Positions 4,025 through 42,256 of a stretch of 64,000 bases of DNA are shown in pieces. Origin of the DNA: an uncultured Microthrixaceae bacterium (GTDB lineage Bacteria > Actinomycetota > Acidimicrobiia > Acidimicrobiales > DATDAH01); contig CAVPAN010000005.1 in the NCBI GenBank assembly GCA_963701565.1, positions 409,672-473,671 of the forward strand, given 5' to 3'. Under the pieces are notes generated by a model. The model searched no databases and was not told the DNA's origin. It saw only the letters and a list, made by a program, of their open reading frames with translations. How positions within the stretch are numbered: position 1 is the stretch's first letter; every line of letters starts with the position of its first letter. Position numbers and translations under genes: made by a program.

Positions 4025-5665
4025 TCAGCGGGCGGCGAACCGGGCCCGGAGGGCTTCGGCGTCATCGGCGGTCATCAGCGCGTAGTCGCCATCGCGCCCG
4101 GGGCGCCACCAGACAGGGTCGGTGACGTCCCAGCCCTCGGTGCGCAACTGTCGCTTGAGGACCTTGTTGGTGGCGGTCGCGGGGAGGGCGTCGGTGACCC
4201 GGAGGTAGCGGGGCGCCCACTTGGTCCCCAGGTCGGCTTGGTCGTCGAGGAAGGCGGCGAGCCCGGCCCCGTCGAATCCATCGGGCCCGGCCACCACGGC
4301 CGCCATCACCTGGTCGCCGACCAACTCGTCGGGGACGGCGTAGACGGCGACCTCGCTGATGTCGGGGTGGCGGGCCAGGATCCGCTCGACCGGGGCGGCG
4401 GCGAAGTTCTCGCCGTCCACCCGCAGCCACTCGAAGCCCCGGCCGGCGAAGTAGACGAAGCCGTCGGCGTCGAGGTACGCAAGGTCGCCCGTCCAGTAGA
4501 CGCCGTCGCGGACCCGCTGCCGGTTGGCCTCGTCGTTGTTGTAGTAGCCCTCGAAGCCTGCGGCCCCGGTCGTGCTGACCATCTCGCCGATGGCCTCGTC
4601 GGGGTTGAGGAGCACGCCATCGACGTCGAAGCGGGCCGGGGGACAGGCCTCGCCGGTCTCGGGGTCGCGGACCTCGATCCCGTCGCCGGCCCGCCCCAGG
4701 GACCCCGGCGGCTGCTCGGGGTCCCTGGTGACCACGGCGCCGCCCTCGGTCGAGCCGTAGTTGTCCACGACGAAGGCCCCGAAGCGCGCCGCGAAGCGCT
4801 GGACGTCCCCTTCAGCGGCCTCGTTGCCGAACACCACCTTGAGCGGGTTGTCGGCGTCGTCGGGCTGTTCGGGGGTGGCCAGCGCGTAGGCCAACGGCTT
4901 GCCCACGTAGTTGAAGTAGGTGACCCCGAAGGCGCGGATGTCCTCGATGAGGCCGGAGGCGGAGAACTTCCGGCGCAGGGCCATCGTCATCCCCCCGACC
5001 ACGGCCGGGGCCCAGCCCGCGAACAGGGCGTTGGAGTGGAACAGCGGCATCGCCAGGTAGGCGCAGTCCTCGGTCCCGAGGCCGAACCCGGCGGACAGGC
5101 CGAGGCCGGCCCGGGCGAGGCGGCCCTGGGAGCAGATGCAGGCCTTGGGCGCACCGGTGGTCCCGGAGGTGAAGAGCAGGAGGAACTGCGTGCCGTCATC
5201 GATCGCGAGGCCGACCGACGGTGCGCCGCGGTGCTCGGCCACGATCATGGCGAAGCCGTCGGAGTCGACGTCGAGGACCCGGTCGTCGCCCAGACCGAGA
5301 TCGAGGCCGTCCAGCAGGGGCCGGTGGGCGGGCTCGGTGACGATGAGCTGGCAGTCGGTGTGGCGGATGTCCCGGGCCAGTTCCTCGCCGCGGCGTGTGG
5401 GGTTGATGCCCACCAGGGTGGCCCCGGCCAGCGCGGCGCCACCGAGCCACATGGGGAAGTCGGGCACGTTGTCGAGCAGGACCCCGACGTGGAAGGGCGC
5501 GTCGTCGACCCGCAGGTCCTCGAGCAGCGCCGCTCGGGCCCGGCACTCGATCACGTACTCGGCCCAGGACCACGTCCGGGTCGGCTCGTCGCGGGACTCC
5601 CGGAAGCGGATGGCGTCGTGGGTGTCGTCGGCCCTGACCGCGAGGAGATCGGCGAAGTTGGCCAT
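4025..5665 (-). CDS. acyl-CoA synthetase (AMP-forming)
   Basis: 546 aa, intact. AMP-binding motifs LLFTSGTTGAPKA, GSTEGG and WTGDLAYLDADGFVYFAGR, with C-terminal KVLKRQLR. Confidence 0.9.
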   Translation of the reverse strand: MANFADLLAVRADDTHDAIRFRESRDEPTRTWSWAEYVIECRARAALLEDLRVDDAPFHVGVLLDNVPDFPMWLGGAALAGATLVGINPTRRGEELARDIRHTDCQLIVTEPAHRPLLDGLDLGLGDDRVLDVDSDGFAMIVAEHRGAPSVGLAIDDGTQFLLLFTSGTTGAPKACICSQGRLARAGLGLSAGFGLGTEDCAYLAMPLFHSNALFAGWAPAVVGGMTMALRRKFSASGLIEDIRAFGVTYFNYVGKPLAYALATPEQPDDADNPLKVVFGNEAAEGDVQRFAARFGAFVVDNYGSTEGGAVVTRDPEQPPGSLGRAGDGIEVRDPETGEACPPARFDVDGVLLNPDEAIGEMVSTTGAAGFEGYYNNDEANRQRVRDGVYWTGDLAYLDADGFVYFAGRGFEWLRVDGENFAAAPVERILARHPDISEVAVYAVPDELVGDQVMAAVVAGPDGFDGAGLAAFLDDQADLGTKWAPRYLRVTDALPATATNKVLKRQLRTEGWDVTDPVWWRPGRDGDYALMTADDAEALRARFAAR

Positions 5666-5734
5666 CGTCAGGTGGGCGGGCGCTCGGGGGCGCCTCGCCT
5701 CTCCGGTGTCGTGCTCACCGGCCCATCATCGCCC

Positions 5735-6877
5735 TCAGACGGGCTGGGGGCGTACTTGCTGCTCGCGCTGGCGAGTCGTGCTGTGCACGGGATCCTTGTC
5801 GTAGGCCGGGATCAGGTGGCGGCCGAAGGTCTCGACGGCCTCGACCGCGACCTCCACGGGCATGGTCGTCGAGAGCATCCCGAACACGAGCTGATCGGCT
5901 CCGGTGGACTCGTAGCGGGCCACGCACCGGTCGACCTCCTCGGGCGAGCCGATGGCCATGAGGCCCCGCTCGACGGCCTGCTCGATCTGGTCGAGGGTCG
6001 GTTCGGGGATCAGGGCCGGCCACTCGGGGATCCCGTCGGGGCGCGGAAACGTGTCCAGGTACCGGAACAGGTTCGACGTGTGGTAGCCGGTGGTCATCTC
6101 CGTGGCGATCTGCTTGGCCCGGCCTCCGTCCTCCAGGCAGAGCATCTGGGTCGTCACCATGATGTTGTCGTTCACGTACGCCCCGACCGGCTCGGCGTCC
6201 TGGATCGCCGTCTTGTACATCTCGATCAGCGGCTTGAGCGCCTCGGGGTCCGAGATGCCGAAGCAGAGGACGCCGAGGCCCATCCGGCCCGCCTTCTCGA
6301 AGGTGGAGGGATTGCCCGCCGCGACCCACAGGGGTGGGTGGGGCCGGGTCAGGGGCTTGGGCAGGACGTTGCGGGGCGGCATCGAGAAGAACCGGCCCTC
6401 GAAGCTGTAGTCGTCCTCCTGCCACATGCGCACGATCTGGGGCAGGGCCTCGTCGAACATGGCCTTGGTCAGGTCGGGGTCGTCGATGCCGAAGCCGGCC
6501 TGCTCGGTGGTGGACGAGCCCCGCCCGGTGCCGAACTCGAAGCGGCCGCCGGAGAGGTGGTCGATCATCGCCACCCGCTCGGCGACCCGAGCGGGGTGGT
6601 TGACCGGCGGCGTGATGTTGATGATGCCGCTACCGAGGTGGATGTTCTCGGTGACCCCGGCGAGGTAGGCCAGGAAGGACTCGTTGGCCGAGAGGTGGGA
6701 GTACTCCTCGAGGAAGTGGTGCTCGGTGGCCCAGGTGTACTTGAACCCCGCCCGGTCGGCGGCCCTGGTCCAGGTCACCTCGTCGAGCAGGCGGGTGTGC
6801 TCGACGAGCTCGGGGTCCGGGCCGGCATCGACGGCCGACTTGGGGCAGTAGAGGCTGTTGAAGACGCCGAACTCCAT
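5735..6877 (-). CDS. LLM-class flavin-dependent oxidoreductase
   Basis: 380 aa. MEFGVFN...WATEHHF...GSGIINI...GGRFEFGTGRG is the typical luciferase-like monooxygenase layout. Confidence 0.9.
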   Translation of the reverse strand: MEFGVFNSLYCPKSAVDAGPDPELVEHTRLLDEVTWTRAADRAGFKYTWATEHHFLEEYSHLSANESFLAYLAGVTENIHLGSGIINITPPVNHPARVAERVAMIDHLSGGRFEFGTGRGSSTTEQAGFGIDDPDLTKAMFDEALPQIVRMWQEDDYSFEGRFFSMPPRNVLPKPLTRPHPPLWVAAGNPSTFEKAGRMGLGVLCFGISDPEALKPLIEMYKTAIQDAEPVGAYVNDNIMVTTQMLCLEDGGRAKQIATEMTTGYHTSNLFRYLDTFPRPDGIPEWPALIPEPTLDQIEQAVERGLMAIGSPEEVDRCVARYESTGADQLVFGMLSTTMPVEVAVEAVETFGRHLIPAYDKDPVHSTTRQREQQVRPQPV

Positions 6878-21166: not shown

Positions 21167-23649
21167 GCGGCCGTCGTGCTCCTGCCTGCGCTGGTCGTGG
21201 CGGGACCTGCGGGCCCGGTGGCTCCAGGTCGCGGCGATCGCCCTGATCATCGCCATCGGCTCGGGCACCTACTCGGGGCTCACCAGCGTCTCGGCCTGGC
21301 GCTACGACGAGCTACGACGCCAGCTACGCCGGCGCTGAACATGTACGACCTGCGGGTCGAGCTGGCCGACGGCGCCTACGGTCGCCGGCCGACGAGCTGC
21401 GAGGCCGTGTAGGGCATCGACGGCGGGCGACGACCTCGACCAGGTCGAGGCCGCGGCTGACCGCGCCGACCCAGGTGGACGCCTCCACCGCCCGAGACCA
21501 GGTCCTGGTGCCCGGGCCGCTCGTCGGGGTCGACGTGTCCGACGGCGGGCCCGCACGTCAGCGGGCTCGCAGGCCGTCGAGCGGGCGGCTCCTCGACCCC
21601 GGCCGACGCCGCGGCGCGGCGACGTGGTCCTGCTCGACGAGCACTTCGCCCAGCGACCACGACCTGCCGCCGACGGGCACGATCCGCATCGAGCGGCGAC
21701 CGGGAGATCGCGGTCGTGGGCAGGGCGCTCTCGCCCGAGAGCTTCTTCGTGGTCGGCGACCGGGGCGGGCTCTTCGCCGACTTCGCCGTGCTGTACGCGC
21801 CGATCGAGACGGTGCAGCGCGCTGACGGACCAGCCCGGGGCAGGCCACGACCTGGTGCTCACGGTCCGCCCGGGCGGCGCCGACCGTCGACGAGGTCGAA
21901 GCGCAGGTGACCGCCGCCATCGGCCGAGCACGTTCCCCGACGTCGGGCATCACCCGATCACCGCCCAGGAGGACGACCAGGTCCTGCGCCTGCTCTACGA
22001 CGACATCGAGGGCGATCAGCGCTTCTACGACATCTTCGCCGTCCTCATCCTGCTCGGCGCGGCCTTCGCCGCGTTCAACCTCACGGTCCGCATCGTCGAG
22101 GCCCAGCGCCGGGAGATCGGCATCGGCATGGCCCTGGGGGTCCCGCCCGGCCCGCATCGCGTTGCGGCCCGCTGCTCGTCGGGGTCCAGGTCGCCGCTGC
22201 TCGGGGTGGTGTTCGGGGTCGGGGTCGGGCCTGCTCATCGACGCCCTGATGGCCGACCTGCTGCGGGGCTTCTTCCCGCTGCCCTCCTGGATCGTTCGAC
22301 TTCCAGCCCCGATGTCTTCCTCCGGGGCGCCGCCCTGGGGCTCCTCCTGCCGATCGTGGCCACGGCCCTCCCGGTGCGCCGGGCGGTGCGGGTGACGCCG
22401 GTCGAGGCCATCAGCACCGACGCACCGGGCGGTCTCCGGCGGGCTGGCCCCCCTGCTCCGGCGGCTGCCGCTGCCCGGCTCGAGCGTCGCCATGATGCCG
22501 GTCCGCAACGTCTGCGTGGCCCCGCCGCACGCTGCTCACCGCGCTCGGCATCGGGGCGGCCATCACCGTGCTGGTCGGCGTGGTCGGGCATGATCGACTC
22601 CTTCGTCGCCACCATCGACCTCGGCGAGGAGGAGATCGTCGGGGAGCATCCCGACCGCTGACCGTCGAGTCTCGGCACCTTCGCTGCCGGTCGACGCCGA
22701 GCCGGTCCGCGGCGGTCGACCGGGTCCCCGTTGGTGGCCGACGGCCGAGACCGGACTGGCGCTGGGGGGCACCCTCGATCCGGGCGACGACGAGATCGAG
22801 GTGCTCCTCGCCGTCGACCGACTTCGACAGCGACCTGTGGCGTGCCGACGGCCGAGCTCGGGCGAGCTGACGCACCGACGAGCCCGGGATCGTCCTCGCC
22901 GAGAAGGCGGCCGACGATCTCGGCGTCGACGTGGGCGACACCGTCGTCCTGCGCCACCCGCGCCGGGCAGGGCCTGGTCGACTACCAGTTCGTCGACACC
23001 GAGCTGCCGGTGCTCGCCATCCACCCGAACCCGTACCGGTTCCTGGCCTACCGTCGACGAGCAGCCAGGCCGACCTGTTCGACCTCGAGGGCATCACCAA
23101 CACGGTGCGGGTCAGCCCCGCCGCCGGGCGTGACCACCGAGGAGGTGCAGCGGGGCCTGTTCGCCCGAGCCCGGCGTGGCCTCGGTCGAGCCGGTGACCG
23201 CCGCCGGCGACGCCGTCCGGGAGCAGATCGAGGAGGTTCGTCGGCGTCTTCACGGTCATCGAGGGCGCGGTGCTGCTGCTGGCCCTGCTGATCGCCTTCA
23301 ACTCCACGGCCATCAACATGGACGAGCGGGCCCGGGAGAACGCCACCATGTTCGCCTTCGGGCTGCCCGCCGGGCGGGTGCTGCTGGTCAGCGTGGTGGA
23401 GAGCCTGCTCATCGGCGTGCTGGGGACGATCGTGGGCGTGGTCGCCGGGCGCCTGCTGCTCGAGTGGCTGTTGCGGGTCCTCTTGCCCTCGACGCTGCCC
23501 GACATCGGCATGGTGATCGCTCCTGTCCGCGTCGACCCTGGTGACCGCGCGTCCTCTTCGGCGTCGTGGCCGTGGCCGTGGCCCCGGTGCTGACGCTCCG
23601 CCGGCTGCGCCGGATGGACATCCCCTCGACCCTGCGGGTCATGGAGTGA
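21163..23649 (+). pseudogene. FtsX-family ABC permease (two FtsX domains), well over ten frame changes
   Basis: Recognisable pieces are scattered over all three plus frames. Examples are [66 protein letters not shown] and LYDDIEGDQRFYDIFAVLILLGAAFAAFNLTVRIVEAQRREIGIGMALG. Others are LLLALLIAFNSTAINMDERARENATMFAFG and the ending LRRMDIPSTLRVME*. Confidence 0.7.
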
Positions 23650-23650
23650 G

Positions 23651-24607
23651 TCAGCGGGCCGCGGCGGCCACCCACTCCCAGAGCCGGGCCCGCTCCTGGT
23701 CGTCGGTCCCGGTGCCGGGGAGGTGCACGGTCGAGCGGCGTCGCCGGTCGAGCCAGAGCTCTCCGCTCGTTCGGGCCGGTTCGTCGGCCCAGAGGAGCCA
23801 GACGAGGGTGTCGGCGCCCTGGTCGGGCGTGCGGAGGGCCGGGCCGGTCACCTTGCGGAAGGTGGGCAGGCTGGTCTCGACACCGGGGGTGTCGGCCCAG
23901 CCCGGGTGCATGGCGTGCACGACGGCAGTGGGGGCGAGGCGCTCGGACCAGAGGCCCAGGAGCTCCACCTGCGCCCGTTTGGCCCGGGCGTACTGCGCCG
24001 TGCCCTTGTAACTCTCGGCGTCCATCTCGAGGTCGTCGACGTCGAGGCCCTGGCTGTACATGCCCCCCGAGGTGACCCAGAGGACCCGGGCCGGGGCCCG
24101 GAGCAGGGGGGTGAGGCGCTCGGTGAGCAGGTGGGGGGCGACGAGGTGGACCGCCAGGGTCGTCTCCAGGCCGTCGGCGGTCACGGTCTTGTCCGCCAGG
24201 AGGGCGCCGGCGTTGTGGACGATGGCATCGAACGGCTGCCCGAACGCCACGAGCTCGTCGGCCAGCTTCCGCACTGCGGCCAGGTCGGCCAGGTCGGCGA
24301 TGTGGGCCGTCACGGTCCCGTTCGGGTGGGCCACGTCCAACTCGGCCACGGCCTTGGTGGTCCGCTGCACGTCCCGGCCGACGACGAGGACGTCGGCGCC
24401 GAGGTCGAGCAGCTGTCCCGTGGCGGCCCGGCCGATGCCGGAGGTGGCTCCGGTCAGCAGGATGCGCTTCCCGGCCAGGGCGGCGGGCGGTGGGTCCTCC
24501 CAGTCGTCGAGGCGGCGCCGGGCCTCGTAGCCGAGGCGGCTGAACGACCCGAGGACCGTCGCCTCCAGGAGGAGGTCGACGGTCCGGGGGAGGGGGTTGG
24601 TGGTCAT
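23651..24607 (-). CDS. SDR family oxidoreductase (retinol-dehydrogenase-like)
   Basis: Internal ATG at 24607 (MTTNPLPRTV...). Contains ILLTGATSGIGRA, NAGAL and YARAKRA. Confidence 0.85.
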   Translation of the reverse strand: MTTNPLPRTVDLLLEATVLGSFSRLGYEARRRLDDWEDPPPAALAGKRILLTGATSGIGRAATGQLLDLGADVLVVGRDVQRTTKAVAELDVAHPNGTVTAHIADLADLAAVRKLADELVAFGQPFDAIVHNAGALLADKTVTADGLETTLAVHLVAPHLLTERLTPLLRAPARVLWVTSGGMYSQGLDVDDLEMDAESYKGTAQYARAKRAQVELLGLWSERLAPTAVVHAMHPGWADTPGVETSLPTFRKVTGPALRTPDQGADTLVWLLWADEPARTSGELWLDRRRRSTVHLPGTGTDDQERARLWEWVAAAAR

Positions 24608-24680
24608 GAGCTCTCGGGCGGGGGAGTGGGGGCGGGGAGGGGATTGCCCCGTCCCCACTCCTACCCGATGGGGAGACCGA

Positions 24681-25256
24681 TCAGGCGGGCGGCAGCAGGA
24701 CGCTGTCGATCACGTGGATGACGCCGTTGGTGGCGAAGATGTCGGTGGCGGTCACAGTGGCGTCATTGACGGTCACGGTCTCGCCGTCGACACCGATCTC
24801 CACCGTGGCTCCGTTGACCGTCGGCACCTCTTCGCCGTCGAGGGTGACGACGTCGGCCGCGGGGACCTCGCCCTCGACCACGTGGTACGTGAGGATCGAG
24901 GTCAGGGTCTCGGTGTCGGCGAGGAGCTCCTCGGCGGTCAGGCCGAGATCCTCGAGGGCGGCGGCGAAGGCGTCGTCGGTGGGGGCGAAGACCGTGTACG
25001 GGCCCTCACCCTGCAGGGTCTCGACCAGGCCGGCGGCCTCGACGGCGGCCACGAGGGTGGTGAAGTCACCGGCGGACGAGGCGGTCTCGACGATGTCCAT
25101 GGTGGGCTCGGCCACGGTGTCCTCGGGGGCCTCCGTGGTGTCGGTGGACTCGGTCGTGGCGGAGTCCTCCGACTCCGAGTCGTCGTCACCGCAGGCGGCG
25201 AACACGAGGGCGCCGGCCAACAGGAAGGACAGCAGCTTGAGAAGACGGCGGGACAT
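24681..25256 (-). CDS. fasciclin (FAS1) domain lipoprotein
   Basis: ATG at 25256 preceded by AAGGAG. Signal peptide [25 protein letters not shown]1 motifs [13 protein letters not shown] and [15 protein letters not shown]. Confidence 0.88.
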
Positions 25257-25281
25257 GGATTGGATTCTCCTTGGGGGGTGG

Positions 25282-25293
25282 TTTAGCACTAAG
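25282..25293. promoter_or_regulatory. operator repeat TTTAGCACTAAG (copy 1, just downstream of the -10)
   Basis: 12/12 identical to copy 2, which starts 19 bp away. Near-palindrome TTAGC-A-CTAA. Confidence 0.5.
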
Positions 25294-25294
25294 C

Positions 25295-25323
25295 ACTCTA
25301 TTTAGCACTAAGTCAAATGTCAA
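25295..25323 (-). promoter_or_regulatory. near-consensus sigma-A type promoter for the fasciclin gene
   Basis: Minus strand reads TTGACA (25323-25318), a 17-nt spacer, then TAGAGT (25300-25295). This lies about 40 nt upstream of the AAGGAG/ATG, in a local low-GC patch. Confidence 0.55.
25301..25314. promoter_or_regulatory. operator repeat TTTAGCACTAAGTC (copy 2, inside the -35/-10 spacer)
   Basis: Occupies the promoter spacer. The GACTTAG-Y-GCTAA core is shared with the site at 26161. Confidence 0.5.
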
Positions 25324-25339
25324 CCTCGGGTCGGAAAAA

Positions 25340-26152
25340 TCAGGAGGTGGCGCTGGCGCTGGTGGTGAGGAGGTCGAGGGCGGACCGGCCGTCGGCCGCC
25401 CACCGGTCGGCCCCGAGTCGGGCGGCCGTCGCCGCGTCGGGGATCGCCGCTCCGCCCGCCAAGACCGGAACCTGAACGCCGGCAGAGCGGAGGGCGGCGA
25501 CGGCGTCGCGGATCGGGCCGGTGGGGGTGATCGACAGCGTCATCCCCACGGCGACGAGTCCGTCGGCGTGGGTCGCGGCGTGGACGAACGCCTCGGCGGG
25601 CGTGTCGGGACCGAGGTCGACCACGGCGAACCCGCGGCCGCGGAGGGGATCGGCCAGGAAGGCCCCGGGCAGGCCGTGGGGATCACCGGACGCGGCGCCC
25701 AGCACGATCGTGCCCCGGCGCCGGCCGCGCCGGGTGAAGTTGCGGGCCAGGCGTCCCAGAAGGCGCTGCATGATCGCGGTGGCCTGGTGCTCCTCGGCGA
25801 TCGAGATCTCGCCCGCGTGCCAGCCGTCGCCGATGTCGACCATCGCACCGGCCAGCACGTCGATGTAGAGGGCCTCGGGGTCCATGCCGCCGGCAAGGGC
25901 AGCCTCGGCCACCGCCATGGCCCCGGCCTCGTCGCCCGCCACGAGGCGCCGGGCCAGGCGCTGGACGTGGTCGACCCGACCGGAACGGGGTGCCGCCTTG
26001 GCGGGCTCGCTCAGCGCGTCGAGGTCACGCTGGCGCACCGACCAGGTCGCGCCCTGCTTGGTGGCGGGCAGCTTCCCGGTCCGTACCCACCGGTACACGG
26101 TCATGTAGTGGACGCCGAGCCGGTCAGCGGCTTCCTGCAGGGTCAGCGTCAT
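25340..26152 (-). CDS. HTH (excisionase/MerR-superfamily type) plus cobalamin-binding transcription regulator, CarH/LitR-like
   Basis: 270 aa. N-terminal LTLQEAADRLGVHYMTVYRWVRTGKLPA. B12-binding_2-like helix bundle with GDGWHAGEISIAEEHQATAIM (W-x9-E-H). Rossmann B12 domain TIVLGAASGDPHGLPGAFLADPLRGRGFAVVDLG. Confidence 0.75.
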   Translation of the reverse strand: MTLTLQEAADRLGVHYMTVYRWVRTGKLPATKQGATWSVRQRDLDALSEPAKAAPRSGRVDHVQRLARRLVAGDEAGAMAVAEAALAGGMDPEALYIDVLAGAMVDIGDGWHAGEISIAEEHQATAIMQRLLGRLARNFTRRGRRRGTIVLGAASGDPHGLPGAFLADPLRGRGFAVVDLGPDTPAEAFVHAATHADGLVAVGMTLSITPTGPIRDAVAALRSAGVQVPVLAGGAAIPDAATAARLGADRWAADGRSALDLLTTSASATS

Positions 26153-26160
26153 GAGCCTAG

Positions 26161-26175
26161 ATTAGCGCTAAGTCT
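26161..26175. promoter_or_regulatory. operator copy 3 ATTAGCGCTAAGTCT over the regulator promoter and start
   Basis: Contains the perfect palindrome TTAGCGCTAA, 9 nt upstream of the regulator ATG (26152). It overlaps a TAATCT hexamer placed 6 nt before the ATG. Confidence 0.5.
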
Positions 26176-26194
26176 CGGCGGATGGTGACCCGGG

Positions 26195-27131
26195 TCAGTA
26201 CCCCGCGGCGCGGTCGACGACGTTGGCCAGCGGTCGGCCGGTCTCCCACCGGGCCAGCTCCTCGAGGAAGATGCCGAGGATGCGGTCGTAGCGCTCCGGG
26301 GAGCTCCACGAGATGTGGGGGCTGAGGTGGACCCGGGGGTGGTCGTACAGCCAGTGGCCCTCGGGTAGGGGCTCAGGGTCCACGGTGTCGAGTGAGGCCA
26401 GGGCCACCCGGCCGTCGTCCAGGGCGCGATCGAAGGGCGTCCTGGTCGACAAGGGCGCCACGGGCGATGTTGACCAGGTGGGCGCCCGGCCCGATCACCT
26501 CGAGGAGCGCCGGGCCCACGAGGTGCCGGGTGGCGGGGGTCGACGGCGCGGTCACGACCAGGTGGTCGCTCCACGCCGCCAGCTCGAGCAGGTCGGTGAC
26601 GATCTCGACCCCCTCGTCGGTGGCCGGGAGGGGCCGGCGGCGGAAGGCCTTCACCTCGCTGCCGAAGGGCAGGGCCCGGCGGGCCACCGCCTCGCCGATG
26701 CCGCCGTAGCCGATGATCGCCACGTGGCGTCCCGGCCAGCGTGCCGAGGTCGGCGAGGTTCCAGTGCTCGGGGGGCTCGGAGATCCAGGTCTGCGGCAGC
26801 TTCTTCTCGAAGGCCAGCATCTGGGTGATCACCCACTCCGAGATGGGTCCTGCTCCGGCGCCCGCGGGAGCAGGTCAGGGTCTGGTCCGGGCCGAGCCGG
26901 TCGAGGGGGAACTGGTCGACCCCGGTGCCGAAGTTGTGGACCCAGCGCACGCCCCGGCCGAGCAATGTCGGGCAGGTCGACCGCGAAGTAGTGGGAGGTC
27001 AGCAGCACCTCGCCGGCAGCGTCGTCCTCGAGGGCGTCGCCACTGCCGATGGACCGCACCGTGACGTCGGGGAACGCGGCCGCGATCTCGCCCGTGATCC
27101 GCTCGCCGAGCTGGCAGAGGACGGTGGTCAC
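26195..27131 (-). pseudogene. D-isomer-specific 2-hydroxyacid dehydrogenase, at least 4 frame changes
   Basis: Pieces are MTTVLCQLGERITGEIAAAFPDVTV... (ORF 26829..27131) and VRWVHNFGTGVDQFPLD (ORF 26651..26965). Further pieces are ITQMLAFEKKLPQTWISEPPEHW (ORF 26149..26832) and VAIIGYGGIGEAVARR...LVNIARGALVDQDAL (ORF 26373..26723). The last piece is ALDDGRVALASLDTVDPEPLPEGHWLYDHPRVHLSPHISW (ORF 26195..26461). Confidence 0.75.
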
Positions 27132-27144
27132 GCTCGGCCCCCGA

Positions 27145-28798
27145 TCAGGCGAACGCCTCGTCGATCAGGTCGGGCTCTCCGGCGGCCTGCTCGGCCGCCC
27201 ACCGGTAGTCGGGCTTGCCGCTGGGGGCGCGGGTGACGGCGTCGACGAAGTGGACCTGGCGGGGGACCTTGTAGCCGGCGATCTCGCCCCGGCAGTGCTC
27301 CTGCAGGTCCTTGATGTCGGTGAGGCCGCCCGTCGTCCCGGAGCTGCACGACGGCGGCGACCCGCTGGCCCCAGCGCTCGTCCTTCACGCCGATGACGGT
27401 GGCGTCGTAGACGGCGGGGTGGGACTTGACCGCGGCCTCGACCTCCTCGGGGTAGATCTTCTCGCCGCCGGAGTTGATGGACACCGAGCCCCGACCGAGC
27501 AGGGTGATGGAGCCGTCCTCCTCGACGGTGGCGAAGTCGCCCGGAACGGCGTAGCGGGTGCCGTCGGGGCCGGTGATGAACGTCTCGGCCGTCTTCACCT
27601 CGTCCTTGTAGTAGCCGAGGGGGATGTTGCCCTTGCGGGCCACCTTGCCGACGACGCCGGAGCCGGGCTGGACGATGTTGAAGTGCTCGTCGATCACGAC
27701 CGAGTCCGGCATGGCGGTGACGGTGGGGCCGCCCTTCATGGCGGTGTTGCCCTTGCCCACCACGACCATGCCGTTGTTGCCGGACTCCGATGCGCCGATG
27801 GCGTCGGTCAGGACCAGGTCGGGGAAGACCTCGAAGAACTGGTCCTTCACCGACGGGGAGAAGACCGCCGCGCTGCTGGAGAGCGAGAACAGGGAGGACA
27901 CGTCCCAGCGGTCGGGATGTTGCTGGAGGGTCTCGATGAGCGGCCGCCCCATGGCGTCGCCGGTGATCATCATCGAGTTGACACCTTCGCGCTGGATGAG
28001 CTCCCAGCACTCCTCGGCGTCGAAGTTGGCCACCAGCACGACCCGGTTGCCGGTCATGGCCTGGCTCATGAGGCCCCACTGGGTGGCCCCGTGCATCAGG
28101 GGGGCGATGGGGAAGAAGGTGATGGGGTCGGGGTAGGCCCGGGCGATGATCTCCTCCGGTTGGGTCGCCTTGACCTTGGTCATGGGGTCGATGCCGCCAC
28201 CGAGAGCCATGAAGACGTCCTCGTGGCGCCACACGACGCCTTTGGGCATGCCCGTGGTGCCACCCGTGTAGAGGATGTAGCGGTCGTCGGGGGATCGGGG
28301 TTCGAAGTCCCGCTCGGGGGAGGCGGCGGCGAGGGCGTCCTCGTAGGGCACGGCGTCGGGCAGGCCGACATCGGCATCGGAGCCGTCGTCGATCACGAGG
28401 GCATGGACCAGGTCCGGTAGCGAGTCGATGCAGTGCTTCACCCGGGGCCCGAAGCCCTGCTCGTAGACGAGGGCCTTCAGGTCGCTGTTGGCGAAGAGGT
28501 AGGACAGCTCGTGCTCGACGTAGCGGTAGTTGATGTTGATCCAGGTGGCCCGGATCTTGAACACGGCCCACAGGGTCTCGACCCACTCGGCGGAGTTGTG
28601 GGCGTAGATGCCGACGTGATCGCCCGGCTCCACGCCGTGGTCGGCCAGGTCGTGGGCCAGGCGGTTGGCCCGCGCCTCCATCTCGGCGTAGGTCCTGCGC
28701 TGGTCGCCGACCACCAGGTACTCCCGATCCGGGAAGGCGTCCACCGCCTGCTCGAACAGGTCCGCCAGGTTGAAGGTCCGTTCCCCCGGGTCACTCAC
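27145..28798 (-). pseudogene. acyl-CoA synthetase (AMP-forming), one C-terminal frameshift
   Basis: GTG at 28798. Contains YILYTGGTTGMPKGV and GDFATVEEDGSITLLGRGS. After VVQLRDDG the conserved tail ..TDIKDLQEHCRGEIAGYKVPRQVHFVDAVTRAPSGKPDYRWAAEQ..DEAFA* is in another frame and ends at 27145. The break is near 27335. Confidence 0.85.
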
Positions 28799-28858: not shown

Positions 28859-30427
28859 TCAGACGAGGCGGCTCTCGTGGCCGGCCCAGTACTCGTCCTT
28901 CAGGAGGCGCTTGTAGAGCTTGCCGGTGGGGTGGCGGGGGAGCTCGTCCCGGAAGTCGATCGACCGAGGGCACTTCACGTCGGCCAGGTGCTCCCGGCAG
29001 TGGGCGATCAGGGTCCGTTCCATCTCTGGGCCGGCGGCGGACGGGTCGGCGAGCTGGACGATGGCCTTGACCTCCTCGCCGAAGTCCTCGTTGGGGACGC
29101 CGATCACCGCGGCGTCGGCCACTGCGGAGTGCACGACCAGGACGTTCTCGGTCTCCTGCGGGTACACGTTCACCCCGCCGGTGATGATCATGTTGGCCTT
29201 GCGGTCGGTGAGGTAGAGGAAGCCGTCGGCGTCGACCTTGCCGATGTCGCCCAGCGTGCTGGACCCGTCGTCCCGGTAGCTGTCCGCCGTCTTGTCCGGG
29301 TCGTTGTGGTACTCGAAGATCCGCCCCGCCGGGGTCGCCCCGAAGTAGATGGTCCCCTCATCGCCGACCGGGACCTCGTTGCCGTCCTCGTCGAGGATGA
29401 GCACGGGTGCCGTCAGCCCCCGGCCGACGGTCCCCTTGTGGGCCAGCCACTCCTCGCTGTTGCAGTAGCAGAAGCCGTTGCCCTCGGTGCCGGCGTAGTA
29501 CTCGTGGATGACCGGCCCCCACCAGTCGATCATCTGCTCCTTGACCGGGATGGGGCAGGGGGCGGCGGCGTGGACGGCGACCTGCATGGAGCTGACGTCG
29601 TGGGCCGCCCGGACCTCGTCCGGCAGCTTCAACATGCGGACGAACATCGTCGGGACCCATTGACTGTGGGTGACGTGGTGCTTCTCGATGAGGGCGAGGG
29701 CCTCGGCCGCGTCGAAGTGCTCCATGACCACGATGGTCGAGCCGAGGCGGAGGAAGTTCATGCAGAAGGCCAGGGGGGCGGCGTGGTACAGCGGGGCGGG
29801 GGAGAGGTAGACCGAGGACTCCGAGGCCCCGAAGACGAGGCTGACGAGGGAGGTCATGGCCTCGGGCGTCCCCAACGGGTCACCGGCCAGCGAGCCCTTC
29901 ACGCCCTTGGGACGGCCGGTCGTGCCCGACGAGTAGAGCATCGCCATGCCCTCGACGGCGTCGAACGGCTCCTCGGGGGACTGGGCGGCGAGGAGGTCCG
30001 CCAGCGGCTCGCAACCGTCGACGGGGCCGCCCACCGACGCCAGCAGGTCGAGCCCGCCGAGCTGGTCCATGAGCTCGGCCACCTGGTCCGCCTTGGCCGG
30101 TGAAGTGATCAGCACCCGGCTGCCCGAGTCCTCGACGATGTAGCCGAGCTCCTCGGCCGTCAGCCGGGAGCTGATGGCCGTGTAGTAGAGCCCGGCGTAC
30201 CGGGCCCCCCAGGTGAGCGCCAGGTAGTCGACCCGGTTCTCCAGGCAGAGAGCCACGTGGTCCCCGGTCTTCAGGCCGAGTGACCCGAAGAGGTTGGCCA
30301 GCCGGCAGGCCGTCTCGTGGAGCTCGGCGTAGGTCATCACCTCGCCCGAGCCGCCCATGATGATCGCCGGGTGGTCGGGCGTCTTCTCCGCCCACGCCCC
30401 CGGGTACTGCCGCTCGCCGTCACTCAT
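28859..30427 (-). CDS. acyl-CoA synthetase (AMP-forming)
   Basis: 522 aa, intact. Contains MLYSSGTTGRPKGV, YAGTEGNG, LGDIGKVDADGFLYLTDRK and PRHPTGKLYKR. Confidence 0.9.
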   Translation of the reverse strand: MSDGERQYPGAWAEKTPDHPAIIMGGSGEVMTYAELHETACRLANLFGSLGLKTGDHVALCLENRVDYLALTWGARYAGLYYTAISSRLTAEELGYIVEDSGSRVLITSPAKADQVAELMDQLGGLDLLASVGGPVDGCEPLADLLAAQSPEEPFDAVEGMAMLYSSGTTGRPKGVKGSLAGDPLGTPEAMTSLVSLVFGASESSVYLSPAPLYHAAPLAFCMNFLRLGSTIVVMEHFDAAEALALIEKHHVTHSQWVPTMFVRMLKLPDEVRAAHDVSSMQVAVHAAAPCPIPVKEQMIDWWGPVIHEYYAGTEGNGFCYCNSEEWLAHKGTVGRGLTAPVLILDEDGNEVPVGDEGTIYFGATPAGRIFEYHNDPDKTADSYRDDGSSTLGDIGKVDADGFLYLTDRKANMIITGGVNVYPQETENVLVVHSAVADAAVIGVPNEDFGEEVKAIVQLADPSAAGPEMERTLIAHCREHLADVKCPRSIDFRDELPRHPTGKLYKRLLKDEYWAGHESRLV

Positions 30428-41671: not shown

Positions 41672-42256
41672 ATGAGCTTCAAGAACCAGTTCGCCCATCC
41701 CCACGGCCTCGGCGGTCGCGCCGCCGGGTGGATCATGGGAAGCCGGAACACCCCACGGAACCGCTGGGTGCTCGAGCTGCTCGAGCCCCAGCCCGGTGAT
41801 CACCTCCTCGAGATCGGCTGCGGGCCGGGCGTGGCCGTGGCCGAGGCGGTGGCCCGCGGCTGCCGGGTCACCGCAGTCGACCCGTCCGAGGTGATGCGGG
41901 CCATGGCCGGCCGTCGCAACGCCGCCGCGGTGGCCGACGGTCGGGTTCGCATCCTCGACGGATCGGCCGAGGCCCTGCCCGACGGGCCCTTCGACGCGGC
42001 CTACGCCTCGAACACCCCCCAGTTCTGGGTCGACATCGACGCCACGTTGGCCGACGTGGCCGGGCGGCTGCTGCCCGGCGGGCAGGTGGCCCTCGCCATC
42101 CAGCCCCGCTTCAAGGGAGCGACCGACGCCGATGCCCGCCGCCTGGCCGACGAGAATGCCGGGTGCCTCCGCCGGGCCGGGTTCGAGGAGGTCCGGCTGG
42201 AGGTCCTCGCGCTCCGACCGACCGATGCGGGTTGTGCCCTCGGTCGTCTCAGCTGA
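41672..42256 (+). CDS. class I SAM-dependent methyltransferase
   Basis: Start set at ATG 41672 (MSFKNQFAHPHGLGG). Contains LLEIGCGPGVAV and LLPGGQVAL. Confidence 0.85.
   Translation: MSFKNQFAHPHGLGGRAAGWIMGSRNTPRNRWVLELLEPQPGDHLLEIGCGPGVAVAEAVARGCRVTAVDPSEVMRAMAGRRNAAAVADGRVRILDGSAEALPDGPFDAAYASNTPQFWVDIDATLADVAGRLLPGGQVALAIQPRFKGATDADARRLADENAGCLRRAGFEEVRLEVLALRPTDAGCALGRLS

Follow-up and report, generated by a model that had tools for sequence, protein, structure and literature searches.

A candidate cobalamin-dependent photoreceptor-repressor with an excisionase-type DNA-binding domain in an uncultured Microthrixaceae bacterium

To our knowledge, CarH is the only B12-based light-responsive transcription factor that is well understood, and it has already been put to use in optogenetics and in light-responsive materials. 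Here, a regulator of a related kind is described from an uncultured bacterium of the Microthrixaceae (Acidimicrobiia; GenBank assembly GCA_963701565.1, contig CAVPAN010000005.1). The stretch of DNA analysed, referred to as the window, spans 64,000 nucleotides (positions 409,672 to 473,671 of the contig). The gene in question encodes a 270-residue protein, hereafter the regulator, in which an excisionase-type helix-turn-helix (HTH) domain of the HTH_17 family is joined to a cobalamin-binding module, and its neighbours are genes for a fasciclin-domain lipoprotein and a short-chain dehydrogenase/reductase (SDR). The regulator is likely to be an adenosylcobalamin (AdoCbl)-dependent photoreceptor-repressor which works like CarH, while being built differently, and which, judging from sequence and structure models, would repress the fasciclin gene, probably along with the SDR gene, and itself in the dark.

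CarH homologues have been defined by a MerR/CarA-like DNA-binding domain (DBD), a linker and an AdoCbl-binding domain, with a Wx9EH signature and the classical B12 motif E/DxHx2Gx41SxV/Tx22-27GG. In the dark, CarH forms AdoCbl-dependent tetramers on three to four tandem 11-bp direct repeats (nAnnTnnACAn) that overlap the promoter; in the light-exposed state, H132 acts as the upper ligand of the cobalamin (bis-His). The LitR/CarH classes I to V have been described as MerR-type regulators in which the N-terminal HTH is conserved, in agreement with the first-pass annotation of this locus. More widely, the SignatureFinder study has found four motifs (GxxW, EH, GxxH and GxxxP) that separate light-responsive cobalamin domains from others, a signature validated experimentally on four proteins, two of which are the photocobilins that come nearest to the regulator in structure. 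The same paper reports light-type cobalamin domains fused to ‘HTH’ output domains, and a survey of photoglobins lists HTH_17 as a fused domain in B12-photoglobin fusions. The SignatureFinder/CtMerR paper was not found to describe any HTH_17-type family, or an operator or regulon for one, nor was a stand-alone HTH_17-B12 regulator family, operator or regulon found in the open-access literature, and a review from 2025 on photobiology in non-photosynthetic bacteria mentions no B12 receptors beyond CarH. The regulator is not unique: it belongs to a large family, the domain combination of which has already surfaced in papers based on database mining.

The first-pass annotation, made from the sequence without database searches, had assigned to the protein an excisionase-type HTH, a helical B12-binding_2-like module and a Rossmann-type B12 domain. 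All three assignments are borne out: the hidden Markov models PF12728, PF02607 and PF02310 score above their gathering thresholds, as does the NCBIfam excisionase model (Table 1), and the cobalamin module and the DBD fold are recovered in structure predictions. The protein remains below the Pfam cut-offs for MerR (16.3 bits vs 28.2) and MerR_1 (12.1 vs 21.6), and it does not reach the NCBIfam CarH equivalog NF052513 (TransRegCarH), which it matches over residues 64-249 only, scoring 60.4 bits where 400 are required. As no match was returned by an exact-sequence look-up of the regulator, the 99%-identical protein P0001 was used in its place.

The string singled out in the first-pass annotation, GDGWHAGEISIAEEHQ, is found in the regulator, where the Wx9EH signature begins at W111. 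On BLASTP alignment with Thermus CarH (TtCarH), the query sequence of which was checked beforehand against PDB entries 3whp/5c8d, WHAGEISIAEEH (residues 111-122) pairs with WHRGEIGVAEEH (residues 131-142). W111, E121 and H122 therefore correspond to the TtCarH cap residues W131, E141 and H142, as had been proposed from the spacing. H159 in the GDPH loop (codon at 25676-25678) corresponds to H177, the lower-axial ligand in the GERH loop of TtCarH, and H112 coincides with H132. Further motif residues in the Rossmann domain are G181xxxP185 and G233-G234. All four SignatureFinder motifs, which belong to the region matching TtCarH 128-177 and beyond, are present, as G108xxW111, E121H122, G156xxH159 and G181xxxP185, each being at least 90% conserved in the alignment of homologues. 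The classical B12 motif is represented in part, by D157-x-H159 and G233-G234 with the correct spacing of 26; the loop GDPHGLPG (residues 156-163), earlier read as a variant of DxHxxG, is indeed one, of the form DxHxxP.

These residues are conserved throughout the family. In an alignment of 60 homologues, extending down to 46% identity, E121, H122, H159, G181, P185, G233 and G234 are invariant, while G108 and W111 are each present in 59. GxxWx9EH is found in all 80 genome-derived homologues (80/80), and Wx9EH in 112 of 114 full-length proteins. A protein-collection search returned 492 relatives, and the three-domain architecture is seen in nearly all full-length matches among the 120 listed. 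The family is present in at least 594 species genomes, mostly of Acidimicrobiia; the closest named genome is an uncultured Microthrixaceae metagenome-assembled genome with 83% protein identity. Within the DBD, residues G13, H15, Y16, M17, T18, Y20 and W37 are invariant in the 60 homologues. As GVHYMT(A/V)Y, the recognition region, does not vary across the family, a shared operator would be predicted.

The full-length AlphaFold2 (AF2) model has a predicted local distance difference test (pLDDT) score of 94, with only residues 52-57 below 50; in the model this segment is a flexible linker between HTH_17 and the four-helix bundle. The helices of the bundle span residues 62-71, 75-87, 92-112 and 118-139, and the chain ends with a helix (255-269), stopping at residue 270 directly after the Rossmann domain. 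The top Foldseek matches in the PDB are dark-state photocobilins (root-mean-square deviation (rmsd) 2.0 Å over ~206 columns), followed by the cobalamin domain of CtMerR and full-length CarH (284 columns, template modelling (TM) score 0.67). The AerR/PpaA-type fold (PDB 7TE2) appears at rank 41. The DBD modelled alone (pLDDT 87) has the topology strand-helix-helix-hairpin-helix, and its best matches are BldC (6amk), Pukovnik Xis (4j2n) and RacA (5i44), with TM scores of 0.70-0.81, rmsd of 1.2-1.7 Å and 31-34% identity. The classical MerR regulators HiNmlR and MtaN come just behind (TM 0.70-0.73). Thus, the DBD has a MerR-like winged-helix fold but falls outside the MerR family as Pfam delimits it, and the coiled-coil dimerization helix of MerR proteins is absent from the model.

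The palindrome TTAGCNCTAA occurs three times in the 64-kb window, where 0.00 copies would be expected, and all three copies flank the regulator gene (Table 1); a relaxed search of the window, allowing 2 mismatches in 12, found no additional sites. Two of them, O1 and O2, lie between the stop codon of the regulator and the fasciclin gene, on a promoter which is the sole promoter-like site in 23500-26400 (10/12 match, 0.0 expected in shuffled sequence). The right half of the third, O3, runs into the sequence TAATCT, 6 nt before the start codon of the regulator. This suggests that TAATCT may serve as the -10 element of the regulator gene, which would give a leaderless, autoregulated mRNA. Among the homologous loci compared (designated by L-numbers), the position of O3 has been kept in L001-L004 and L008-L010, the O3-TAATCT arrangement being found in relatives at 71-99% identity, while the paired O1/O2 arrangement is kept in L001-L004, L008 and L010. 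An Rfam scan of the whole window gave no family at gathering score and hence no cobalamin riboswitch, tRNA or other known RNA.

Table 1. Coordinates of the regulator gene, its encoded domains, the putative operators and promoter, and the candidate target genes in the window
Feature	Position	Strand	Description and basis
Regulator gene	25340..26152	minus	270 amino acids plus stop, ATG start; open reading frame call
DNA-binding domain, residues 3-46	26015..26146	minus	Excisionase/BldC/RacA-type winged helix; HTH_17 (PF12728) 49.7 bits, cut-off 27; TIGR01764, ‘excisionase family DNA-binding’, 48.2 bits, cut-off 28.8; model
Four-helix-bundle subdomain, residues 64-135	25748..25963	minus	B12-binding_2 (PF02607) 67.0 bits, cut-off 23; model helices
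Cap motif Wx9EH, W111...E121-H122	25787..25822	minus	WHAGEISIAEEH; BLASTP mapping onto TtCarH
Rossmann-type B12-binding domain, residues 148-260	25373..25711	minus	B12-binding (PF02310) 37.7 bits, cut-off 32.1
Sigma-70-type fasciclin promoter	25295..25323	minus	TTGACA (25323-25318), 17 nt, TAGAGT (25300-25295)
Putative operator O1	25301..25312		Palindrome, TTTAGCACTAAG on the plus strand; lies within the spacer (17 nt) of the fasciclin promoter
Putative operator O2	25282..25293		Palindrome 19 bp from O1; directly after the -10, over the expected transcription start
Putative operator O3	26161..26172		Palindrome ATTAGCGCTAAG; placed 19 nt upstream of the regulator ATG, its near end 9 nt before it
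Candidate target gene 1, fasciclin-domain lipoprotein	24681..25256	minus	191 amino acids from ATG 25256; AAGGAG 10 nt upstream; PF02469 129 bits
Probable target gene 2, SDR	23651..24658	minus	PF00106 62.5 bits

The same palindrome adjoins the regulator gene in homologous loci down to 49% identity. In 80 such loci from reference genomes, with Markov resamples providing the expectation, 97 sites were counted against 4.0 +/- 1.8 expected, an enrichment of ~24-fold; none lies within the coding sequence of a regulator, and in 32 of the 80 loci a site is found no more than 160 bp upstream of it. Conservation extends to the flanks of the 10-mer searched for, with T at -1 and A at +10 in 78% of sites, giving a consensus of ~14 bp, aTTTAGYRCTAAAt. 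The sites fall in the divergent or upstream regions of neighbouring genes, at the promoters of genes for SDRs, photolyase, fasciclin proteins and carotenoid synthesis (crt), and of amine oxidase-DUF1365-CMAS clusters.

Other genes are associated with the palindrome in some lineages. In L048, L070 and L083, it precedes a gene of the sigma-70 family (regions 1.2, 2, 3 and 4), ~1 kb upstream of the regulator, which follows directly (locus ~4800-5980); this arrangement suggests a light-controlled sigma factor cascade in those Actinomycetota lineages. In L018, L019, L020, L024, L038, L045 and L078, a gene for a conserved protein of ~210-240 amino acids lies between the palindrome and the regulator gene, and in L018 and L024 it is preceded by paired palindromes 18 bp apart. 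This protein has no significant Pfam family, showing a weak sub-threshold hemerythrin-like match only, and is a candidate member of the regulon.

In the window itself, the neighbours had been read as a fasciclin lipoprotein and an SDR, which the Pfam matches support (Table 1); the N-terminus of the former resembles a signal peptide with a lipobox-like FAAC, as read from the sequence. The fasciclin gene had also been named as an apparent target, and two family-conserved palindromes on its promoter now speak for this. A fasciclin gene adjoins the regulator with a palindrome upstream in 9 of the 80 genomes. The SDR gene, likewise named, is a probable target: homologous genes are directly associated with the operator in other genomes, and in the window the link is suggested by co-orientation. 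The SDR gene is likely to begin at the ATG at 24607 (318 amino acids, as called in L001). It shares the strand of the fasciclin gene and follows it after 73 bp; no terminator-like site separates the two genes, which are probably co-transcribed. Over ~310 residues, the SDR shows 48-54% identity to its counterparts in the operator-marked SDR/amine-oxidase/DUF1365/CMAS clusters. When regulon-type seed proteins were compared with the window by tblastn, they matched only the fasciclin protein, the SDR, a 2-hydroxyacid dehydrogenase and, weakly, one CMAS-like sequence. Together with the palindrome scan, this leaves no other regulon-type gene in the 64 kb, and the local circuit would consist of the regulator and fasciclin genes, with the SDR gene as a probable third member. 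The weak match to cyclopropane-fatty-acid (CFA) synthase-like proteins (41792-42094, plus strand; 39% over 104 residues, E 1e-10) has no palindrome near it and is probably an unrelated S-adenosylmethionine-dependent methyltransferase.

Close relatives keep the gene order 2-hydroxyacid dehydrogenase, regulator, fasciclin, SDR. Over the 80 loci, the neighbours include an SDR homologous to that of the window (33), amine oxidase (27), CMAS (25), DUF1365 (24), Polyketide_cyc2 (20), photolyase (14) and fasciclin (9). Among distant homologues, the surroundings are plainly related to light: one locus has a heliorhodopsin gene on one side and fasciclin and photolyase genes on the other; another has genes for an SDR, an amine oxidase, DUF1365 and a CFA-synthase-like methyltransferase; and a third has a complete carotenoid cluster together with a pyrimidine-dimer glycosylase. 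In L005 (6436-7215; on one contig with L011), the heliorhodopsin gene is divergent from the regulator, and a palindrome-like site lies between the regulator and the PNPOx-like gene beside the heliorhodopsin gene; in L042, a heliorhodopsin gene is divergent from the fasciclin-regulator pair. A link between heliorhodopsin and B12-based light regulation is possible.

Genes of these kinds are known from light and singlet-oxygen regulons in other bacteria. The RpoE singlet-oxygen regulon of Rhodobacter sphaeroides includes the fasciclin protein RSP_1409 (log2 fold change 2.8-4.5), the SDR RSP_1087, CFA-synthase-like genes and photolyase. The class II LitR clusters of Pseudomonas contain photolyase, an SDR, a flavin adenine dinucleotide (FAD)-dependent oxidoreductase and UfaM, and in Mycobacterium kansasii two fasciclin genes are induced by light. 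The first-pass annotation had suggested that the output may be undescribed. This holds only in part, since fasciclin, this type of SDR, CFA-like proteins and photolyase occur in other such regulons and the family adjoins carotenoid and photolyase genes; the output is a conserved photo-oxidative stress gene set, known under other regulators and new only for a B12 photoreceptor. The membership of these genes in light and singlet-oxygen regulons elsewhere supports a photoreceptor-repressor, as does the combination of a family-wide link of the targets to photo-protection with the Wx9EH cap and the palindromes at promoters.

A mechanism may be proposed on this basis, in which cobalamin binding, light sensitivity, oligomeric state and repression rather than activation are inferred. 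In the dark, AdoCbl would be held between the four-helix bundle and the Rossmann-type domain, with H159 as lower ligand and with W111, E121 and H122 capping the 5'-deoxyadenosyl group. Binding of AdoCbl would drive head-to-tail dimerization, and possibly dimer-of-dimer assembly, of the B12 domains, such that the flexibly tethered BldC/Xis-type DBDs could bind the ~14-bp palindromes. Occupation of O1 and O2, at the spacer and start site, and of O3, over the presumed -10 of the regulator gene, would exclude RNA polymerase from the fasciclin(-SDR) genes and from the regulator gene. Light, from UV to green, would cleave the Co-C bond, causing the oligomer to fall apart and to release the DNA so that the genes are expressed; H112 would then probably take over as upper ligand, in the manner of H132 in CarH. 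A lack of B12 would leave the genes constitutively on, mimicking light.

Several observations weigh against this mechanism. The classical B12 motif is altered: the Gly after the His is replaced by P162 (Pro in 65 of 74 homologues), M-T-L stands in place of SxV/T, and the resulting DxHxxP variant lacks the conserved Ser 41 residues on, while the GG is invariant. The same variant, with its HxLP loop, is found in the photocobilin SasPcob, the crystal structure of which holds AdoCbl. His is present at position 112 in only 11 of 60 homologues, so the light-state chemistry may differ between family members, and bis-His trapping may be a subfamily trait. A palindrome of ~14 bp is hard to reconcile with binding by a CarH-type tetramer, and the oligomeric model is accordingly speculative. 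Near the locus, neither a cobalamin riboswitch nor a gene for B12 uptake or an adenosyltransferase was seen in the Rfam scan and locus contexts, and the window SDR gene has no operator of its own. Many hosts of the family come from soil or sludge, where exposure to light is intermittent. Finally, no experiment on any member of the HTH_17-cobalamin family was found in the open-access literature.

The habitats of these hosts, soil and activated sludge among them, are one reason to consider that the regulator may be a nutritional B12 sensor in which light has no physiological role. Its B12-binding domains are certain, and an AdoCbl-dependent repressor is B12-dependent by construction. However, the targets are not genes of B12 metabolism or transport but photolyase, carotenoid, heliorhodopsin-adjacent and photo-oxidative stress genes, the Wx9EH/GxxW cap marks light-responsive cobalamin domains as opposed to enzymatic or decoy ones, and the closest structures are photoreceptors, all of which make a purely nutritional sensor unlikely. 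A different question is whether cobalamin is needed at all. The classical B12 motif is partly degenerate, and Myxococcus CarA, which binds B12 without needing it, provides a precedent for a B12-independent repressor or one that senses another ligand. CarA, however, lacks the Wx9EH signature, whereas here this signature and the lower-axial His are invariant family-wide, which argues for selection on AdoCbl binding; a regulator of the CarA kind is therefore quite improbable, more so than a nutritional sensor.

The position of O1 in the promoter spacer, where activators of the MerR family bind, and the MerR-like fold of the DBD might instead point to an activator that remodels the promoter from between the -35 and -10. 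Such activators correct over-long spacers of 19-20 nt, but the spacer of the fasciclin promoter is already at the optimal 17 nt. Moreover, O2 over the start site and O3 over the presumed -10 of the regulator gene are typical repressor positions, as in CarH, and the MerR coiled-coil is missing; activation of this kind is improbable, standing somewhere between the nutritional sensor and the CarA-like repressor. Least credible of all is that the protein serves a mobile element as its excisionase or recombination directionality factor, or that it is a corrinoid methyl-carrier. These readings draw on source annotations such as ‘excisionase family DNA binding protein’ and ‘methanogenic corrinoid protein MtbC1’, on sub-threshold MtgC/MtbC/MtaC matches and on the resemblance of the DBD to phage Xis, but a transcription factor is indicated both by the fusion to an HTH and by the palindromes at promoters. 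An excisionase was rejected as the protein is a 270-residue fusion, no integrase or recombinase lies within 8-10 kb in L001-L007, and synteny is stable. A corrinoid methyl-carrier (MtbC/MtaC/MtgC, TIGR02370) was rejected on scores of 45-71 bits against cut-offs of 215-450 (one being 70.8 vs 370), and no methyltransferase partner was found within 8-10 kb in seven annotated loci.

If the regulator is a photoreceptor-repressor, a wider and more tentative proposal can be made, one that may well prove too broad. The HTH_17-cobalamin proteins could form a distinct, phylum-scale family of B12 photoreceptor-repressors, which in Acidimicrobiia and in further Actinomycetota would serve as the master switch by which light controls a photo-oxidative stress regulon; this comprises a cluster of the furan/cyclopropane-fatty-acid type, photolyase, carotenoids, a sigma factor and heliorhodopsin-linked genes. 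Unlike in CarH, two BldC/RacA-like winged helices would bind each short palindrome, as a dimer and not a tetramer, and in the Microthrixaceae a secreted fasciclin lipoprotein, and with it possibly adhesion at the cell surface, would come directly under the control of light and B12.

The quality of the assembly at the locus was judged against L001, an independent contig ~99% identical to the window. The regulator, fasciclin and SDR genes and the palindromes are free of indels between the two. Scattered single-base indels occur elsewhere in both assemblies, and chromosomal synteny is stable across relatives with identities of 71% to 99%. The 2-hydroxyacid dehydrogenase gene next upstream of the regulator (26195-27131, minus strand) has its frame broken by four single-base insertions (26972, 26863, 26729 and 26426) relative to an intact 310-residue gene in L001; it is either a pseudogene or, more likely, the product of long-read assembly indels. 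Beyond it, an AMP-binding (acyl-CoA synthetase-like) gene (27128-28798, minus strand) carries one indel at 27333 relative to L001, which results in an Arg/Pro-rich, out-of-frame C-terminal tail. A further AMP-binding gene is intact in the window (28859-30427) and split in L001 (5727-7297 region). Between the two AMP-binding genes, relatives at 71-83% identity have an AbiEi_4/DUF559 gene (L002 and L003, 6331-7263; L004, 4361-5293), which is absent from this position in the window and in L001.

Should the proposed function prove true, the regulator would offer an orthogonal green-light switch of a second, naturally abundant design that has the same photosensory module, another DNA-binding head and a compact palindromic operator, as well as a test of how B12-driven oligomerization couples to another operator architecture. 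It would explain light sensing in the abundant but little-studied Acidimicrobiia of soil, freshwater and activated sludge (relatives of Microthrix), and the operator motif would allow the light regulon to be read out computationally in hundreds of uncultured genomes. The recurrence of fasciclin as a target would tie light and B12 to an adhesion or surface protein of a kind that also belongs to photo-oxidative stress responses in Rhodobacter and Mycobacterium.

Of the systems already described, CarH and class I LitR (TtCarH, PDB 5C8D/5C8E/5C8F, and the Myxococcus and Bacillus CarH proteins) resemble the regulator in having a winged-helix DBD, a disordered linker and an AdoCbl-type four-helix bundle with a Rossmann domain. 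They also share the Wx9EH cap, the lower-axial His and the His beside the Trp. As in CarH, the candidate operators overlap a sigma-70-type promoter, and some members of the family adjoin carotenoid and photolyase genes. In contrast to CarH, the regulator has a DBD of the HTH_17/TIGR01764 type instead of Pfam MerR, a predicted operator of one or two palindromes instead of three to four tandem direct repeats, a B12 motif of the form DxHxxP without the conserved Ser, and local candidate targets which are a fasciclin lipoprotein and an SDR. As the DBD, operator and NCBIfam comparisons all set it apart, it has not been filed as CarH/LitR; it appears to work like CarH, yet strictly speaking lies outside CarH/LitR.

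The photocobilins (SasPcob, 8J2W/8J2X; AbPcob, 8J2Y), which provide the best sequence and structure matches to the B12 module (E 2e-23, 30-35% identity), resemble the regulator in their HxLP loop and W...EH cap and are actinobacterial, one of them being an Acidimicrobiaceae protein. They carry a C-terminal biliverdin-binding globin and no DBD, whereas the regulator has an N-terminal DBD and ends after its cobalamin module. In SasPcob, the light state is ligated by water or hydroxide, while the regulator has the CarH-type His beside the Trp. Classification as a photocobilin was rejected, there being no globin domain in Pfam or in the model and the photocobilin chains being 339-352 residues long, compared with 270. 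CtMerR of Chloracidobacterium thermophilum (8JBS/8JBT) shares GxxW/EH/GxxH/GxxxP and is a transcription factor with a DBD that has diverged from that of CarH, but it is still MerR-type, unlike the regulator. AerR/PpaA has the same B12-binding_2 and B12-binding fold, at a similarity well below that of the photoreceptors. AerR has no DBD and acts via CrtJ, and an AerR-type antirepressor was rejected because the regulator carries its own DBD.

The closest folds to the DBD, those of Streptomyces BldC, phage Xis and RacA, belong to proteins without a sensor domain. BldC binds direct repeats head-to-tail, while RacA binds a 14-bp inverted repeat with two winged-helix domains and so sets a precedent for a short palindrome being shared by two DBDs. 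On the output side, the R. sphaeroides RpoE-ChrR system, Pseudomonas class II LitR with its light-oxygen-voltage (LOV) partner and Vibrio cholerae MerR/ChrR control sets that match that of the family (photolyase, SDR, FAD/amine oxidase and CFA-synthase-like/UfaM proteins), with fasciclin included in Rhodobacter. Those regulons sense through anti-sigma proteolysis or a LOV flavoprotein partner and involve no cobalamin domain. What is new here is a B12 photoreceptor of a different build that apparently controls this conserved photo-oxidative stress gene set.

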